The notes under the pieces were generated by a model that worked only from the letters and a program-made list of their open reading frames with translations, ran no database searches and was not told the origin of the DNA. Source: a virus (lineage: Duplodnaviria > Heunggongvirae > Uroviricota > Caudoviricetes). Taken from it: 6,961 nucleotides of DNA. A program made the translations under genes and the position numbers. Positions 1 to 6,961 of this stretch are shown piece by piece. The DNA is taken from IMG/VR virus record IMGVR_UViG_2531839579_000008; one strand, written 5' to 3'. The stretch's first letter is position 1. Each line of letters starts with the position of its first letter.

Positions 1-226
1 TAATTGTATTATCAATAAAATAAAAGCTTGGGCGAGCGCATATAAAGTATATATGGCATTTTGAAAGTTGTTTTTCTTGTTCTAAATTAATTTTTGCATC
101 AGACGTTAGTTGCTGAGCAGTAAGCATCGCTGTAAAACTATTTAAGTATCCAAAAGCAAATTCGTGTATGAATTTTCTTTTCACTCGAAATATCCTCACT
201 AGAAATGAATAATATTGGTTTTTCAT
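1..226 (-). CDS. Hypothetical protein, N-terminal 75 codons only (gene runs off the left edge); candidate accessory/moron gene
   Basis: Reverse-strand frame is open for 75 codons from ATG (complement of 224-226) to position 2, with an in-frame stop (complement of 236-238) just upstream, so this ATG is the first possible start. An uninterrupted frame this long is unusual in DNA of about 30% GC (my count: 26% in 1-100, 35% in 101-200). Translation begins MKNQYYSFLVRIFRVKRKFIHEFAFGYLNSFTAMLTAQQLTSDAKINLEQEKQLSKCH; I recognise no family. No convincing Shine-Dalgarno. Missing from the supplied ORF track probably because it is edge-truncated. Confidence 0.45.
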   Translation of the reverse strand, partial: MKNQYYSFLVRIFRVKRKFIHEFAFGYLNSFTAMLTAQQLTSDAKINLEQEKQLSKCHIYFICARPSFYFIDNTI

Positions 227-555
227 GATAATACTCTATTGATCCTAGACTTACCATTTAAAAAACGAACTGACATGCTCCCGTTGATTAATAAGCTGTA
301 AGGTTAGCAATTCTTTTGGCGTTGAGAACAACTGCGAACTTCCGTTCCTTGCTCAAAGCAGACTGTTAGATTTGATAGCGTTTGGGCTATGTAAGTAGCC
401 AGTTGGAGAATGAGTGAGTGCAAATCAGGACTGGCGGGCGAATTGCCTGCATTTTCTTTATCTGTTGTTTCATCCACTGACCAGCCAGGTCAAATAGCGT
501 CTTATGCTCTGCACAACAGAAAATAGTTGCACCCATTAACCACGGAGTTAAACGG
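227..555. promoter_or_regulatory. Divergent intergenic region; expected to hold the promoter of the reverse-strand ORF and the late promoter of the FI-FII-E-T-U-D operon
   Basis: 329 bp with no ORF of any size worth calling, lying between two divergently oriented genes, and a composition shift from AT-rich (left) to GC-rich (right). Shine-Dalgarno GGAG at 545-548, 7 nt before the FI ATG. I scanned 420-555 for the Ogr-type TGT-N12-ACA dyad of P2 late promoters and found no exact match, so no promoter position is called. Confidence 0.3.
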
Positions 556-1741
556 ATGAGTGACTATCATCATGGCGTGCAGGTGCTGGAGATTAACGAC
601 GGCACCCGCGTCATTTCCACCGTATCCACTGCCATTGTCGGCATGGTCTGCACGGCCAGCGATGCGGATGCGGAAACCTTCCCCCTCAATAAACCGGTGC
701 TGATTACCAATGTGCAAAGCGCAATTGCAAAGGCCGGTAAAAAAGGCACGCTGGCGGCATCGTTGCAGGCCATCGCTGACCAGTCAAAACCGGTCACCGT
801 TGTCGTGCGCGTGGAAGACGGCACCGGTGATGACGAGGAAACGAAACTCGCGCAGACCGTTTCCAATATCATCGGCACCACCGACGAAAACGGTCAGTAC
901 ACCGGACTAAAAGCCCTGCTGGCGGTGGAGTCGGTAACCGGTGTTAAACCGCGTATTCTCGGTGTGCCGGGACTGGACACCAAAGAGGTGGCTGTTGCAC
1001 TGGCATCCGTCTGTCAGAAGCTGCGCGCTTTCGGATATATCAGCGCATGGGGCTGTAAGACCATTTCCGAGGTGAAAGCCTACCGCCAGAATTTCAGCCA
1101 GCGTGAGCTGATGGTCATCTGGCCGGATTTCCTCGCATGGGATACGGTCACCAGTACCACCGCCACCGCGTATGCCACCGCCCGTGCGCTGGGTCTGCGC
1201 GCTAAAATCGACCAGGAGCAGGGCTGGCATAAAACGCTGTCCAACGTCGGGGTAAACGGTGTTACCGGCATCAGCGCATCTGTATTCTGGGATTTGCAGG
1301 AGTCGGCACCGATGCTGACCTGCTTAACGAGTCAGGCGTCACTACGCTGATTCGCCGCGACGGTTTCCGTTCTGGGGTAACCGTACCTGCTCTGATGACC
1401 CGCTGTTCCTCTTTGAAAACTAACCCGCACCGCGCAGGTGTGGCCGACACGATGGCTGAGGCGCACATGTGGGCGGTGGACAAGCCCATCACCGCAACGC
1501 TGATTCGCGACATCGTTGACGGCATCAATGCCAAATTCGTGAGCTGAAAACAAACGGCTATATCGTGGATGCGACCTGCTGGTTCAGCGAAGAATCCAAC
1601 GATGCGGAAACCCTCAAGGCCGGAAAACTGTATATCGACTACGACTATACACCGGTGCCTCCTCTTGAAAACCTGACCCTGCGCCAGCGTATTACCGATA
1701 AATACCTGGCAAATCTGGTCACTTCGGTTAACAGCAATTAA
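556..1741 (+). pseudogene. FI: Tail sheath protein gpFI (P2 family), reading frame interrupted; intact only for 556..1350 (264 aa)
   Basis: N-terminus MSDYHHGVQVLEINDGTRVISTVSTAIVGMVC matches P2 gpFI as I recall it. The ORF stops at 1348-1350, but coding continues in shifted frames: frame 0 (1308-1370) TDADLLNESGVTTLIRRDGFR, frame 2 (1373-1420) WGNRTCSDDPLFLFEN, frame 1 (1423-1440) TRTAQV, frame 0 (1443-1538) ADTMAEAHMWAVDKPITATLIRDIVDGINAKF, frame 2 (1541-1738) ELKTNGYIVDATCWFSEESNDAETLKAGKLYIDYDYTPVPPLENLTLRQRITDKYLANLVTSVNSN, with stop TAA at 1739-1741 overlapping the FII Shine-Dalgarno. Each hop is a -1 step, so five single-base losses near 1305, 1371, 1421, 1440 and 1539. Corrected length would be about 396 aa, the typical sheath size. 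Confidence 0.85.
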
Positions 1742-1753
1742 GGAGCCTGACCG

Positions 1754-2272
1754 ATGGCAATGCCGCGCAAACTCAAGTTAATGAACGTCTTTCTGAACGG
1801 CTACAGCTATCAGGGCGTTGCAAAGTCCGTCACGCTGCCAAAACTGACCCGTAAGCTTGAAAACTATCGCGGTGCGGGGATGAACGGCAGCGCACCGGTA
1901 GACCTCGGCCTTGATGACGATGCGCTGTCAATGGAGTGGTCGCTCGGTGGCTTCCCGGATTCGGTTATCTGGGAGCTTTACGCCGCAACCGGCGTGGATG
2001 CCGTCCCGATTCGTTTTGCAGGCTCTTACCAGCGCGACGATACCGGCGAAACGGTGGCCGTTGAGGTGGTCATGCGTGGACGTCAGAAAGAAATCGACAC
2101 CGGCGAGGGTAAACAGGGAGAAGACACCGAGTCGAAAATCTCCGTGGTCTGCACCTATTTCCGGCTGACGATGGACGGTAAGGAGCTGGTCGAAATCGAC
2201 ACCATCAACATGATTGAGAAGGTGAACGGCGTCGACCGGCTGGAGCAACACCGCCGCAATATCGGCCTGTGA
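1754..2272 (+). CDS. FII: Tail tube protein gpFII (P2 family)
   Basis: Intact 172-aa ORF beginning MAMPRKLKLMNVFLNGYSYQGVAKSVTLPKL, matching P2 gpFII in sequence and length as recalled. Strong Shine-Dalgarno AAGGAG at 1740-1745. Immediately follows the sheath gene as in P2. Confidence 0.9.
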   Translation: MAMPRKLKLMNVFLNGYSYQGVAKSVTLPKLTRKLENYRGAGMNGSAPVDLGLDDDALSMEWSLGGFPDSVIWELYAATGVDAVPIRFAGSYQRDDTGETVAVEVVMRGRQKEIDTGEGKQGEDTESKISVVCTYFRLTMDGKELVEIDTINMIEKVNGVDRLEQHRRNIGL

Positions 2273-2279
2273 TTTTCAT

Positions 2280-2300
2280 CCGGTCAGCCTGGCTGACCGG
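2280..2300 (+). other. Perfect palindrome / stem-loop between FII and E
   Basis: CCGGTCAGCC-T-GGCTGACCGG: two 10-nt arms that are exact reverse complements around a single central T, starting 8 nt after the FII stop. It is followed by TTAACCCC, not a U-run, so it is not a canonical intrinsic terminator. Confidence 0.35.
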
Positions 2301-2328
2301 TTAACCCCGATTCATAAGTGAGAAAACC

Positions 2329-2604
2329 ATGAACAAAGAAAATGTGATTACCCTGGACAATCCGGTCAAACGTGGTGAGCAGGTTATCGAACAGGTCACG
2401 CTGATGAAACCCAGTGCCGGGACGCTGCGCGGTGTCAGTCTGGCAGCGGTCGCAAACTCCGAAGTCGATGCACTGATTAAGGTGTTGCCGCGCATGACGG
2501 CACCGATGCTGACCGAGCAGGAAGTCGCCGCACTGGAACTGCCTGACCTTGTGGCGCTGGCCGGTAAGGTGGTCGGTTTTTTGTCGCCGAACTCGGTGCA
2601 GTGA
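2329..2604 (+). CDS. E: Tail assembly chaperone gpE (P2 family)
   Basis: Intact 91-aa ORF MNKENVITLDNPVKRGEQVIEQVTLMKPSAGTLRGVSLAAVANSEVDALIKVLPRMTAPMLTEQEVAALELPDLVALAGKVVGFLSPNSVQ, matching P2 gpE in sequence and length as recalled. Confidence 0.9.
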   Translation: MNKENVITLDNPVKRGEQVIEQVTLMKPSAGTLRGVSLAAVANSEVDALIKVLPRMTAPMLTEQEVAALELPDLVALAGKVVGFLSPNSVQ

Positions 2605-2756
2605 CGTTCCCGAAAAATCTGTCGGTCGATGACCTGATGGCGGATGTGGCAGTGATATTTCACTGGCCGCCATCAGAACTGTATCCCATGAGCCTGACCG
2701 AACTCATCACATGGCGCGAAAAGGCGCTCCGGCGAAGCGGAAACACGAATGAGTAA
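2329..2756 (+). CDS. E': gpE+E' fusion made by programmed -1 ribosomal frameshift near the 3' end of E
   Basis: Slippery run TTTTTTG at 2577-2583 inside the last codons of E. The -1 frame from 2583 is open to TAA at 2754-2756 and reads VAELGAVTFPKNLSVDDLMADVAVIFHWPPSELYPMSLTELITWREKALRRSGNTNE. Total about 142 aa, the size I recall for P2 E+E'. The E' stop overlaps the T start at 2749. Confidence 0.8.
2577..2583 (+). other. Programmed -1 frameshift slippery site (T6G) for E/E'
   Basis: TTTTTTG heptamer, 20 nt before the E stop codon, with an open -1 frame downstream. This is the arrangement of the conserved tail-chaperone frameshift in P2 (gpE/E') and lambda (gpG/GT). Confidence 0.75.
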
Positions 2757-5174
2757 CAATGTAAAATTACAGGTATTGCTCAGGGCTGTTGACCAGGCAT
2801 CCCGCCCGTTTAAATCCATCCGCACAGCGAGCAAATCGCTGTCGGGGGATATCCGGGAAACACAAAAATCACTGCGCGAGCTGAACGGTCACGCATCCCG
2901 TATTGAGGGATTCGCAAGACCAGTGCACAGCTCGCCGTGACTGGTCATGCACTTGAAAAGGCACGGCAGGAGGCCGAAGCCCTTGCCACACAGTTTAAAA
3001 ACACCGAACGTCCGACACGTGCTCAGGCGAAAGTGCTGGAATCGCAAGCGGCGGCGGAGGACTTACAGGCGAAATATAACCGCCTGACGGATTCCGTTAA
3101 ACGCCAGCAGCGGGAACTGGCCGTTGTGGGAATTAATACCCGCAATCTTGCACATGATGAGCAGGGACTGAAAAACCGTATCAGTGAAACCACCGCCCAG
3201 CTTAACCGGCAGCGTGACGCGCTGGCGCGTGTCAGTGCGCAACAGGCAAAACTTAACGCAGTCAAACAGCGTTATCAGGCCGGAAAGGAACTGGCCGGAA
3301 ATATGGCCTCAGTGGGCGCTGCCGGTGTGGGGATTGCTGCTGCGGGAACGATGGCCGGAGTTAAGTTGCTGATGCCCGGTTATGAGTTTGCGCAGAAAAA
3401 CTCAGAATTGCAGGCTGTGCTCGGTGTGGCAAAAGACTCCGCCGAAATGGCCGCGCTCCGCAAGCAGGCGCGCCAGCTCGGCGACAATACCGCAGCCTCG
3501 GCAGATGATGCAGCCGGTGCGCAGATTATTATTGCGAAAGCCGGTGGGGATGTTGATGCCATTCAGGCGGCAACGCCGGTCACGTTGAATATGGCGCTGG
3601 CGAACCGCCGCACGATGGAAGAAAACGCCGCCCTGCTGATGGGGATGAAATCCGCCTTTCAGCTTTCAAACGATAAGGTCGCTCATATCGGGGATGTTCT
3701 CTCCATGACGATGAACAAAACCGCCGCCGATTTTGACGGTATGAGCGATGCGCTGACCTATGCCGCACCTGTGGCAAAAAATGCCGGTGTCAGCATTGAA
3801 GAAACCGCCGCAATGGTCGGGGCGCTGCATGATGCAAAAATCACAGGCTCAATGGCGGGGACGGGAAGCCGTGCCGTGTTAAGCCGCCTGCAGGCACCGA
3901 CGGGAAAAGCATGGGATGCACTCAAAGAGCTTGGAGTGAAAACCTCAGACAGCAAGGGAAACACCCGGCCAATATTTACCATTCTGAAAGAAATGCAGGC
4001 CAGTTTTGAGAAAAACCGGCTCGGTACTGCCCAGCAGGCTGAATACATGAAAACCATTTTCGGGGAGGAGGCCAGCTCAGCCGCCGCTGTGCTGATGACT
4101 GCCGCCTCAACCGGAAAGCTGGACAAACTGACCGCTGCGTTTAAAGCCTCAGACGGGAAGACCGCAGAGCTGGTAAATATCATGCAGGACAACCTCGGCG
4201 GTGACTTTAAGGAGTTTCAGTCCGCTTATGAGGCGGTGGGGACGACCTGTTTGACCAGCAGGAAGGCGCACTGCGTAATCTCACGCAGACGGCCACAAAG
4301 TATGTGTTAAAACTCGACGGCTGGATCCAGAAAAACAAATCACTGGCGTCAACCATCGGCTCATTGTCGGTGGGCCTGGCCTATTGGTCATCGGTGCCAT
4401 TGGCTGTAGCCTGGCCGGTTATCACGGCATCAATGCCATCATCGCGGCAGCAGGCGCAATGGGGGCATCTTCACGACGGTTGGCAGTGCTGTTATGACGC
4501 CATCGGGGCGATTAGCTGGCCGGTTGTGGCCGTGGTGGCCGCCATTGTCGCCGGGGCGTTGCTTATCCGTAAATACTGGGAGCCTGTCAGCGCATTCTTT
4601 GGCGGTGTGGTGGAAGGGCTGAAAGCGGCATTTGCGCCGGTGGGGGAACTGTTCACGCCACTTAAACCGGTGTTTGACTGGCTGGGCGAAAAGTTACAGG
4701 CCGCGTGGCAGTGGTTTAAAAACCTGATTGCCCCGGTCAAAGCCACCCAGGACACCCTGAACCGTTGCCGTGACACGGGCGTCATGTTCGGGCAGGCACT
4801 GGCTGACGCGCTGATGCTGCCGCTTAATGCGTTCAACAAACTGCGCGGCGGTATTGACTGGGTACTGGAAAAACTCGGCGTCATCAACAAAGAGTCAGGC
4901 ACGCTTGACCAGACCGCCGCCAGAACTCATGCCGCCACGTATGGCACCGGTGGTTATATTCCGGCGACCAGCTCTTATGCAGGTTATCAGGCTTATCAGC
5001 CGGTCACGGCACCGGCTGGCCGCTCTTATGTAGACCAGAGTAAAAACGAATATCACATCACCTGACGGGGGTACTCGCCGGGGAACAGCTCGACCGCCAG
5101 TTACAGGATGCCTCGAAAAATACGAGCGGGATAAACGTGCGCGCGCCCGTGCCAGCATGATGCATGACGGTTAA
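2749..5174 (+). pseudogene. T: Tail tape measure protein gpT (P2 family), reading frame interrupted at several points
   Basis: N-terminus MSNNVKLQVLLRAVDQASRPFKSIRTASKSL matches P2 gpT as recalled. The track splits the gene into 2749..2940 (frame 1), 2937..4310 (frame 0) and 4304..5065 (frame 2). Frame hops: near 2913 (IEGF then RKTSAQLAVTGHAL in the next frame); near 4244 (EAVGT then LFDQQEGALRNLTQTATKYVLKLDGW); three hops in 4362-4499 within a hydrophobic segment; near 5062 and 5112, after which frame 0 reads LEKYERDKRARARASMMHDG to TAA at 5172-5174, which overlaps the U Shine-Dalgarno AAGGAGG (5173-5179). Corrected length about 810 aa, against about 815 aa recalled for P2 gpT. Confidence 0.85.
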
Positions 5175-5188
5175 GGAGGTGACGAAAA

Positions 5189-5662
5189 ATGATGCTCGCG
5201 TTAGGTATGTTTGTTTTTATGCGCCAGACGCTGCCACACCAGACCATGCAGCGTGAATCAGATTATCGCTGGCCGTCAAATTCCCGTATCGGTAAACGGG
5301 AGCTTTCAGTTTCTCGGTGTGGGAGGAAAACATCACGCTTGCCGGTGTGCTTTATCCCGACTGACCGGCGGAAGCTGACGATGACCACGCTCAGGCTGAT
5401 GGCAGAGGAAGGCCGGGCGTGGCCGTTGCTGGATGGCACCGGCATGATTTACGGCATGTATGTCATCAGCAGGGTGAGTGAAGCAGGGAGTATTTTCTTT
5501 GCAGACGGCACACCCCGAAAAATTGATTTTACGCTGTCGCTTACCCGCGTTGATGAATCACTGGCCGCGCTTTATGGCGATATCGGTAAACAGGCGGAAT
5601 CGCTCATCGGTAAGGCTGGCAGTATGGCGACTAAATTCACGGGTATGACGGGGGCGGGATAA
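5189..5662 (+). CDS. U: Tail protein gpU (P2 family); full-length frame but with an internal 25-aa stretch that appears to be read out of frame
   Basis: 157-aa ORF with Shine-Dalgarno AAGGAGG at 5173-5179. The N-terminus MMLALGMFVFMRQTLPHQTMQRESDYRWPSNSRIGKR and the C-terminus KLTMTTLRLMAEEGRAWPLLDGTGMIYGMYVISRVSEAGSIFFADGTPRKIDFTLSLTRVDESLAALYGDIGKQAESLIGKAGSMATKFTGMTGAG match P2 gpU as recalled. The middle segment ELSVSRCGRKTSRLPVCFIPTDRR (5300-5371) is Arg/Cys-rich, while the other two frames over the same bases read FQFLGVG, EENITLAGVLYP and LTGG. Confidence 0.85.
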   Translation: MMLALGMFVFMRQTLPHQTMQRESDYRWPSNSRIGKRELSVSRCGRKTSRLPVCFIPTDRRKLTMTTLRLMAEEGRAWPLLDGTGMIYGMYVISRVSEAGSIFFADGTPRKIDFTLSLTRVDESLAALYGDIGKQAESLIGKAGSMATKFTGMTGAG

Positions 5663-6825
5663 TGCTGGATGCGCTGACATTTGATGCAGGCAGTACGCTG
5701 ACGCCGGATTACATGCTGATGCTCGACAGCAGGGATATTACCGGCAATATCAGCGACCGTCTGATGAGCATGACCCTGACGGATAACCGGGGCTTTGAGG
5801 CTGACCAGCTTGATATTGAACTGAACGATGCCGACGGGCAGGTCGGGCTACCGATTCGTGGCGCTGTCCTGACGGTGTATATCGGCTGGAAAGGTTTTGC
5901 CCTGGTATGCAAAGGGAAATTTACCGTTGATGAGGTTGAACACCGGGGCGCGCCGGATGTGGTTACCATCCGCGCCCGGAGTGCAGATTTCCGCGGGACG
6001 CTTAATTCCCGCCGGGAAGGCTCCTGGCATGACACCACGCTCGGTGCGATTGTTGAGGCGATAGCCTCCCGTAACAAGCTGGAGGCCAGTGTCGCTCCGT
6101 CACTGGCCGGAATTAAAATCCCGCACATCGACCAGTCGCAGGAGTCTGATGCGAAATTCCTGATCCGTCTTGCTGAACGCAACGGCGGTGAGGTGTCGGT
6201 AAAAATGGGAAAACTGTTGTTTCTTAAGGCGGGGCAGGGGGTGACGGCCAGCGGTAAAAAAATCCCGCAGATTACCATCACCCGCAGCGACGGCGACCGT
6301 CATCATTTTGCGATTGCTGACCGTGGAGCCTACACCGGTGTAACGGCAAAATGGCTACACACCAAAGACCCGAAGCCTCAAAAGCAGAAGGTAAAACTGA
6401 AACGTAAAAAGAAAGAGAAACACCTGCGCGCACTGGAGCACCCGAAAGCGAAACCGGTCAGGCAGAAGAAAGCGCCTAAAGTACCGGAAGCGCGTGAAGG
6501 TGAATACATGGCCGGTGAGGCTGACAACGTTTTTGCCCTGACCACGGTATATGCCACGAAAGCACAGGCCATGCGTGCCGCTCAGGCGAAGTGGGATAAG
6601 CTGCAACGGGGTGTAGCGGAGTTCTCCATCAGCCTGGCTACTGGTCGGGCAGATATTTACACGGAAACACCGGTTAAAGTGTCAGGCTTTAAGCGCGTCA
6701 TAGACGAGCAGGACTGGACAATCACTAAGGTGACACATTTTCTGAATAACAGCGGCTTCACGACGTCCCTGGAGCTTGAGGTCAGGCTTTCTGATGTGAA
6801 GTACGAAACAGAAGATGATGAGTGA
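5662..6825 (+). CDS. D: Tail protein gpD (phage late control gene D family, P2 family)
   Basis: Intact 387-aa ORF MLDALTFDAGSTLTPDYMLMLDSRDITGNISDRLMSMTLTDNRGFEADQLDIELNDADGQ, matching P2 gpD in sequence and length as recalled. Its start overlaps the U stop (TAATG at 5660-5664). Contains the lysine-rich basic stretch typical of gpD. Confidence 0.9.
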   Translation: MLDALTFDAGSTLTPDYMLMLDSRDITGNISDRLMSMTLTDNRGFEADQLDIELNDADGQVGLPIRGAVLTVYIGWKGFALVCKGKFTVDEVEHRGAPDVVTIRARSADFRGTLNSRREGSWHDTTLGAIVEAIASRNKLEASVAPSLAGIKIPHIDQSQESDAKFLIRLAERNGGEVSVKMGKLLFLKAGQGVTASGKKIPQITITRSDGDRHHFAIADRGAYTGVTAKWLHTKDPKPQKQKVKLKRKKKEKHLRALEHPKAKPVRQKKAPKVPEAREGEYMAGEADNVFALTTVYATKAQAMRAAQAKWDKLQRGVAEFSISLATGRADIYTETPVKVSGFKRVIDEQDWTITKVTHFLNNSGFTTSLELEVRLSDVKYETEDDE

Positions 6826-6906
6826 TGTTTTGTTTTTATCTGTTTGTTTTATAAGGATAAATTAACTAAAATGGCACCATCAACAAAACCGGAAGAGGTG
6901 CTCGCG
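6826..6906 (+). promoter_or_regulatory. D-ogr intergenic region, presumed to carry the ogr promoter and ribosome-binding site
   Basis: 81-bp AT-rich spacer containing a TATAAG -10-like hexamer at 6850-6855 and a Shine-Dalgarno AAGAGG (about 6893-6898) 8 nt before the ATG at 6907. I could not find a well-spaced -35 element, and there is no GC-rich hairpin after the D stop. Confidence 0.3.
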
Positions 6907-6961
6907 ATGTTTCATTGTCCTTTATGCCAGCATGCCGCACATGCGCGTACAAGTCGCTATA
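6907..6961 (+). CDS. ogr: Ogr zinc-finger late-gene transcriptional activator, 5' end only (runs off the right edge)
   Basis: Translation from ATG 6907 reads MFHCPLCQHAAHARTSRY, which is the N-terminus of P2 Ogr as I recall it and includes the CxxC zinc-binding motif. It sits directly after D as in P2. An in-frame ATG at 6871 would add 12 residues (MAPSTKPEEVLA) but has a poorer ribosome-binding site. Confidence 0.85.
   Translation, partial: MFHCPLCQHAAHARTSRY

Follow-up and report, generated by a model that had tools for sequence, protein, structure and literature searches.

The closest described counterpart of the gene analysed here is T of phage P2, which occupies the same slot of the same operon and encodes gpT (NP_046782), the tail length tape measure protein of 815 amino acids that contains the PF10145 domain. 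Directly upstream of T, in the same operon, are located E and E', the tail assembly chaperone genes of P2, which are linked by a programmed -1 ribosomal frameshift. On the technical side, draft short-read assemblies are subject to consensus errors at collapsed repeats or mixed haplotypes, the usual outcome of which is a chimeric or ambiguous base.

The DNA analysed in this study (hereafter the window, comprising the whole stretch of 6,961 nucleotides) corresponds to an entire draft contig, NCBI GCA_000358575.2 AQBU01000162.1, as established by exact look-up of its D protein followed by sequence identity. It covers the late operon for tail genes in a P2-like (Peduovirus) prophage, with a nucleotide identity of 97-98% both to P2 itself and to numerous prophages of E. 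coli. In comparison with P2 T, to which its nucleotide identity is about 97%, the deposited T gene is divided into four segments by changes of frame and includes scrambled stretches. This four-segment organisation belongs to the record and not to the phage, and the underlying gene is an ordinary P2 gpT. Similarly, the frame hop detected near position 4244 exists in the deposited sequence but has no biological reality. With a probability of roughly 96%, we attribute the base loss between 4243 and 4244 to a consensus-calling artefact, which would have arisen when reads of two ~97%-identical P2-like prophage sequences were merged in a draft contig.

Gene T in the deposited tail operon

The gene order in the window is that of P2, FI-FII-E/E'-T-U-D-ogr. 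The tail sheath gene FI lies at 556-1741, FII at 1754-2272, E/E' at 2329-2756, the P2-type tape-measure gene T at 2749-5174 (plus strand, stop codon at 5172-5174), the tail gene U at 5189-5662, and D at 5662-6825, followed by ogr, of which only the gene start falls inside the window. At its other end (positions 1-184, minus strand), the contig begins within a hypothetical gene encoding a 327-amino-acid product, present in full in the related prophages L123 (6701-7684, minus strand) and L127 (2294-3277, minus strand). This gene is located between the tail-fibre assembly gene and FI, a slot occupied in P2 by the non-essential lysogenic-conversion gene fun(Z). Its sole PHROG match is phrog_15714, of unknown function (E = 1e-218), searches of Pfam and PADLOC returned no match for it, and the region that carries it is present in just 6 of 5,426 complete E. 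coli genomes. The gene may encode an as yet uncharacterised cargo or defence function.

The identity of the interrupted gene as P2 T, proposed in a preliminary description made from the sequence alone, was borne out by three lines of evidence. A tblastn comparison of P2 gpT against the window covered all residues from 1 to 815 on the plus strand, distributed over residues 1-57 in frame 1 (2749-2919), residues about 54-500 in frame 0 (up to 4243), residues about 499-780 in frame 2 (4238-5071), and residues 780-815 again in frame 0 (5067-5171). The ORF at 2937-4310 matched the Pfam family PF10145 (PhageMin_Tail) with E = 7e-46, and the gene is flanked, within the late tail operon, by the E/E' chaperone genes on one side and by U/D on the other. 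As deposited, with 22 bases missing, T does not form the single ORF of ~815 codons typical of this gene, whereas the restored T does.

The preliminary description had also proposed that one base was lost around 4244-4246, and had suggested an alignment to P2 T as a check. This alignment was performed and confirmed each of the sequence-level points, placing the single missing base unambiguously between 4243 and 4244 of the plus strand, 1-3 nt from the initial estimate. In the alignment to P2 (NC_001895), an E. coli prophage, and other relatives, the references read GGGAC[T/A]GACCTG at this site. The missing base is the third position of the gpT Thr500 codon (ACN), at the junction between AYEAVGT and DLFDQQ, and corresponds to column 6049 of L002, at which the two parental prophages described below (A and B) are discordant: the codon is ACA in parent A, and ACT in parent B and in P2.

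The reading frame with positions divisible by three (ORF 2937-4310) ends in EFQSAYEAVGTTCLTSRKAHCVISRRRPQSMC (also given as EAVGTTCLTSRKAHCVISRRRPQSMC) before a stop codon at 4308-4310. The loss at 4243/4244 is the cause of both this stop and the Cys/Arg-rich tail, which is the out-of-frame read-through TCLTSRKAHCVISRRRPQSMC at 4244-4310 (plus strand), as had been suspected. From 4247, the neighbouring frame encodes LFDQQEGALRNLTQTATKYVLKLDGWIQKNKSLASTIG and remains open for about 272 codons up to a stop at 5063-5065. Thus, the adjacent frame of 270 codons initially described is indeed open, but it does not correspond to clean T sequence, since 12 bases are missing at 4360-4498. This frame stays open past these positions by accident, because 12 losses are a multiple of three: the net loss amounts to four codons and the frame closes again, while ~46 codons in between are scrambled, with GSLSVGLAYWSSVPLAVAWPVITASMPSSRQQAQWGHLHDGWQCCYD replacing GLIVGGALALIGIIGAIGLVAWPVITGINAIIAAAGAMGAVFTTVGSAVMT.

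An exact scan of viral, genome and metagenome contig collections with the deleted 36-mer across the site gave 0 matches, and once the base was restored (as N), this 36-mer matched at least 120 IMG/VR viral contigs in its in-frame form. The truncated T product of 457 amino acids with the Cys/Arg tail is on record solely on the source contig, so that homologs do not carry this peptide, and T is a single 815-codon gene in all intact relatives examined, rather than two separate genes.

Two readings of the frames as deposited, programmed frameshifting during translation and a natural division of T into two genes, have to be set against these results. The first gains some plausibility from the genuine programmed -1 frameshift of E/E' in the same operon, whose slippery site GGTTTTTTG is intact at 2575-2583 of the window and identical to that of P2. 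However, no heptamer of the XXXYYYZ type occurs within 4200-4290, the intact relatives examined have an unremarkable Thr codon here, in frame within one 815-codon ORF, the shifted product occurs on one contig only, and the 21 further frame disruptions in T cannot all be decoded. Unlike the E/E' frameshift of P2, the hop at 4243/4244 lacks both a slippery site and conservation, and involves a base that is missing from the record. A programmed ribosomal frameshift at 4243/4244 was rejected because slippery heptamer and two-frame conservation are both absent. The E/E' frameshift is the only genuine recoding event in the operon and is unrelated to the hop in T, and the probability of either programmed decoding or a naturally divided T is practically nil.

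Distribution of the missing bases in FI, T and U

Compared with intact relatives (P2, L002, L123, L124, L126, and L127), the window exhibited 33 one-base deletions and no insertions. The deletions affect FI (5), T (22), and U (6), and are grouped in five clusters, one in FI (1303-1537), three in T (2912-3050, 4243-4498, and 5060-5111), and one in U (5301-5371). All positions given here refer to the plus strand. FI lacks bases after 1303, 1369, 1422, 1440, and 1537, and is called in the deposited sequence as three ORFs of 264, 50, and 58 amino acids. In the 5' part of T, four bases are missing after 2912, 3043, 3045, and 3050, the first of which constitutes the first frame hop in the gene. Downstream of the Thr500 site, the 12 losses mentioned above are located after 4360, 4373, 4375, 4380, 4382, 4387 (two bases), 4403, 4405, 4425, 4467, and 4498. 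Five additional losses in the 3' part of T, after 5060, 5069, 5075, 5084, and 5111, lead to the stop at 5063-5065. In U, six bases are missing after 5301, 5303, 5320, 5322, 5360, and 5371, leaving an ORF of 157 amino acids, versus the 159 expected, with a scrambled middle part. When the 33 bases were put back, using the allele of either parent, intact products were obtained for FI (396 amino acids), FII (172), E (91), T (815), U (159), and D (387).

The missing bases are not randomly distributed with respect to codon position, as 25 out of 33 (76%) correspond to position 3, a profile like that of the natural differences between parents A and B (144 out of 177 at position 3, 81%). A bias towards homopolymers was not detected: 21 of the 33 bases are in runs of length 1, against a background of 54%, and none is in a run longer than 3.

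Because P2 and the E. coli reference often differ at the deleted positions, a panel of about 115 P2-like loci from IMG/VR was built, gathered by means of the 36-mer with the restored base as N. The deleted columns were found to be polymorphic in this panel in 23 out of 33 cases with the BLAST placement (P 1e-10) and in 31 out of 33 with the best placement (P 3e-21), the background being 18%. For each deletion cluster, some natural pair of haplotypes, once stripped of its discordant sites, gives an exact substring of the window; for instance, 111 columns minus 10 haplotype differences reproduce positions 4344-4444 exactly. In a search for two parents over the whole window, the best pairs from the panel left 33-40 columns unexplained, because the true parent B is absent from IMG/VR loci of the panel; this was solved with L124 and L127.

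Two templates in one contig

Parent A is L002 and corresponds to NZ_CP025916.1:4165600-4172300; this prophage, which adjoins yegQ in the complete genome of ETEC 120899, was chosen as the best complete-genome match. Parent B, found by look-up of an identical D protein, is L127 (Logan ERR4899719_401) or, equally, L124 (ENA ERZ1034755 NODE_103, with a fieF-pfkA flank). The positions of the deletions played no part in the choice of either parent. Both prophages are intact, align with each other without gaps, and are ~97% identical, with 189 discordant columns out of 6,644 (2.8%).

The window is composed of these two templates, and every base that it lacks lies on a difference between them. None of the 6,611 bases at 351-6961 (plus strand) is foreign to both A and B. 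At the 189 discordant columns, the window carries the A base in 57 cases, the B base in 99, and no base in 33, arranged in runs of A alleles, runs of B alleles, and runs of dropped sites. There are no deletions at concordant columns, and all 33 fall on discordant ones (hypergeometric P = 5e-53). In the segment around the frame hop, 13 of the 14 A/B differences at 4226-4512 were dropped and the remaining one was resolved to B. Both the attribution of all bases to one of two templates and the restriction of errors to the differences between them support a two-template consensus artefact.

General knowledge of assemblers suggests how such a consensus may have been produced. Reads of both copies would have been piled into one multiple alignment, in which the correct base is emitted wherever the templates agree, and one allele, the other allele, or no base where they differ. 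The wobble position of Thr500, with A in one template and T in the other, would be one of the sites with no base, resulting in a frame shift on paper. Bases could have been dropped by two routes: the two alleles may have been placed in adjacent gap-containing columns, in each of which the gap won, or ambiguity codes may have been written and later stripped. As in other errors due to collapsed repeats or mixed haplotypes, the window is a short contig whose limits lie within a repeated element, the alleles of two templates alternate along it, errors are confined to inter-copy differences, and related assemblies show different outcomes. In contrast with the usual errors of this kind, a sixth of the discordant sites in the window were dropped outright, giving rise to frameshifts.

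Random indels of the sequencing platform, such as the homopolymer miscalls of 454, Ion Torrent, or nanopore reads, could in principle affect a single template unrelated to any second copy, and both the excess of deletions, typical of some platforms, and the nature of the source, a short contig of a 2013-era draft, are in line with this explanation. Nevertheless, the lack of homopolymer enrichment noted above, the exact coincidence of the losses with A/B-discordant sites, and the alternation of A and B alleles among the retained bases, not expected of a single template, make it exceedingly unlikely.

Under the preferred explanation of a merged consensus, both templates were presumably present in the sequenced sample. 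They may correspond to a pair of prophages of a single genome, at yegQ and fieF, or derive from a mixed template or culture; the chimeric draft contigs described below suggest that A and B may have been co-resident in one genome. The alternation of A and B blocks could also partly reflect a true recombinant prophage, but this would not explain the missing bases. A second P2-like copy in ETEC 120899 was considered as parent B and rejected, since this genome is devoid of the B-type upstream region and cargo gene. No exact match to the B sequence at fieF was found among the complete genomes of the E. coli collection (best, 98.4%). When an all-B haplotype was rebuilt for positions 4100-5500 and compared with complete E. 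coli genomes, the best match reached 99.1% and no exact parent was found, because the phase across clusters in such a reconstruction is arbitrary.

Sibling draft contigs and other damaged copies of T

Three additional IMG/VR records, L068 (IMGVR_UViG_2537561693_000014), L099 (IMGVR_UViG_2531839586_000013), and L115 (IMGVR_UViG_2537561685_000016), were found to be short whole contigs from other draft genomes, in which A and B sequence is likewise mixed and 0-3 bases match neither parent. The numbers of one-base deletions are 26, 14, and 9, respectively, insertions are absent, and all these deletions are located at most 2 nt from A/B-discordant columns. The subsets of sites lost differ from that of the window, with which they overlap only partially; at several sites dropped in the siblings the window carries the B allele, and all three siblings keep the base at column 6049 (the Thr500 site). 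In addition, L099 combines upstream cargo of A type with a chromosomal flank (fieF/pfkA) of B type. The loss of different subsets indicates that draft assemblies differed in how they merged the same two templates, and by comparison of these sequences the pattern fits a collapsed repeat or a mixed template, unlike inherited mutations.

These data bear directly on whether the window might represent a decaying prophage remnant with true one-base deletions in T, FI, and U. That all 33 indels are deletions would agree with the deletion bias of bacterial pseudogenes, and defective P2-like prophages are common in E. coli, including one genome (H31) with an IS2 element in T. However, decay would not be expected to place 33 of 33 deletions on the 2.8% of columns at which two intact prophages differ (P about 5e-53), nor 76% of them at wobble positions. 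Other lesions are absent and all six genes are intact after restoration, sibling contigs lost different subsets of the same sites, and the deleted form does not occur on other contigs of three large collections. Whereas the indels of a natural frameshift pseudogene would be independent of polymorphism and codon position, those of the window are associated with both, and the lesion at Thr500, expected to be inherited by close relatives, is not shared by L068, L099, and L115. Real mutational decay is, hence, highly unlikely.

The bases could also be physically absent if two resident P2-like prophages had recombined into a hybrid and an aberrant processing of heteroduplex mismatches had removed single nucleotides at the 33 positions. 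This would imply the loss of bases at a sixth of the mismatched sites and a dead tail operon, and the different subsets missing in sister strains would have to represent independent events; the probability of this scenario is extremely low.

As a consensus artefact, the hop in T is important solely as a caution on data quality. Counts of pseudogenes, split tape-measure genes, or recoding candidates should leave out the frameshifted T, FI, and U genes found here, and the same applies to at least three sibling contigs also included in IMG/VR, as artefactual frameshifted prophage fragments have entered a viral contig collection. Their signature, consisting of deletions only, biased to wobble positions, at sites that are polymorphic among relatives, and in a short contig inside a repeated prophage, is easily screened and could allow artefacts of this type to be flagged in draft genomes as well as in viral contig collections derived from them.

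Two other damaged copies of T were observed. In L125 (GCA_000356605.2 AQEK01000042.1), which has the fieF/pfkA flank and an identical D protein, T lies at 1560-4007 and is called as three ORFs of 351, 209, and 240 amino acids. Relative to parent A, this contig has a single deletion and a single insertion; its sequence is predominantly of B type, with 37 A alleles, and probably reflects a related consensus problem. In H31, the complete genome of E. coli strain 32-4 (NZ_CP048310.1), the homologous T is interrupted by an IS2 element, which is a real, biological breakage of the gene.
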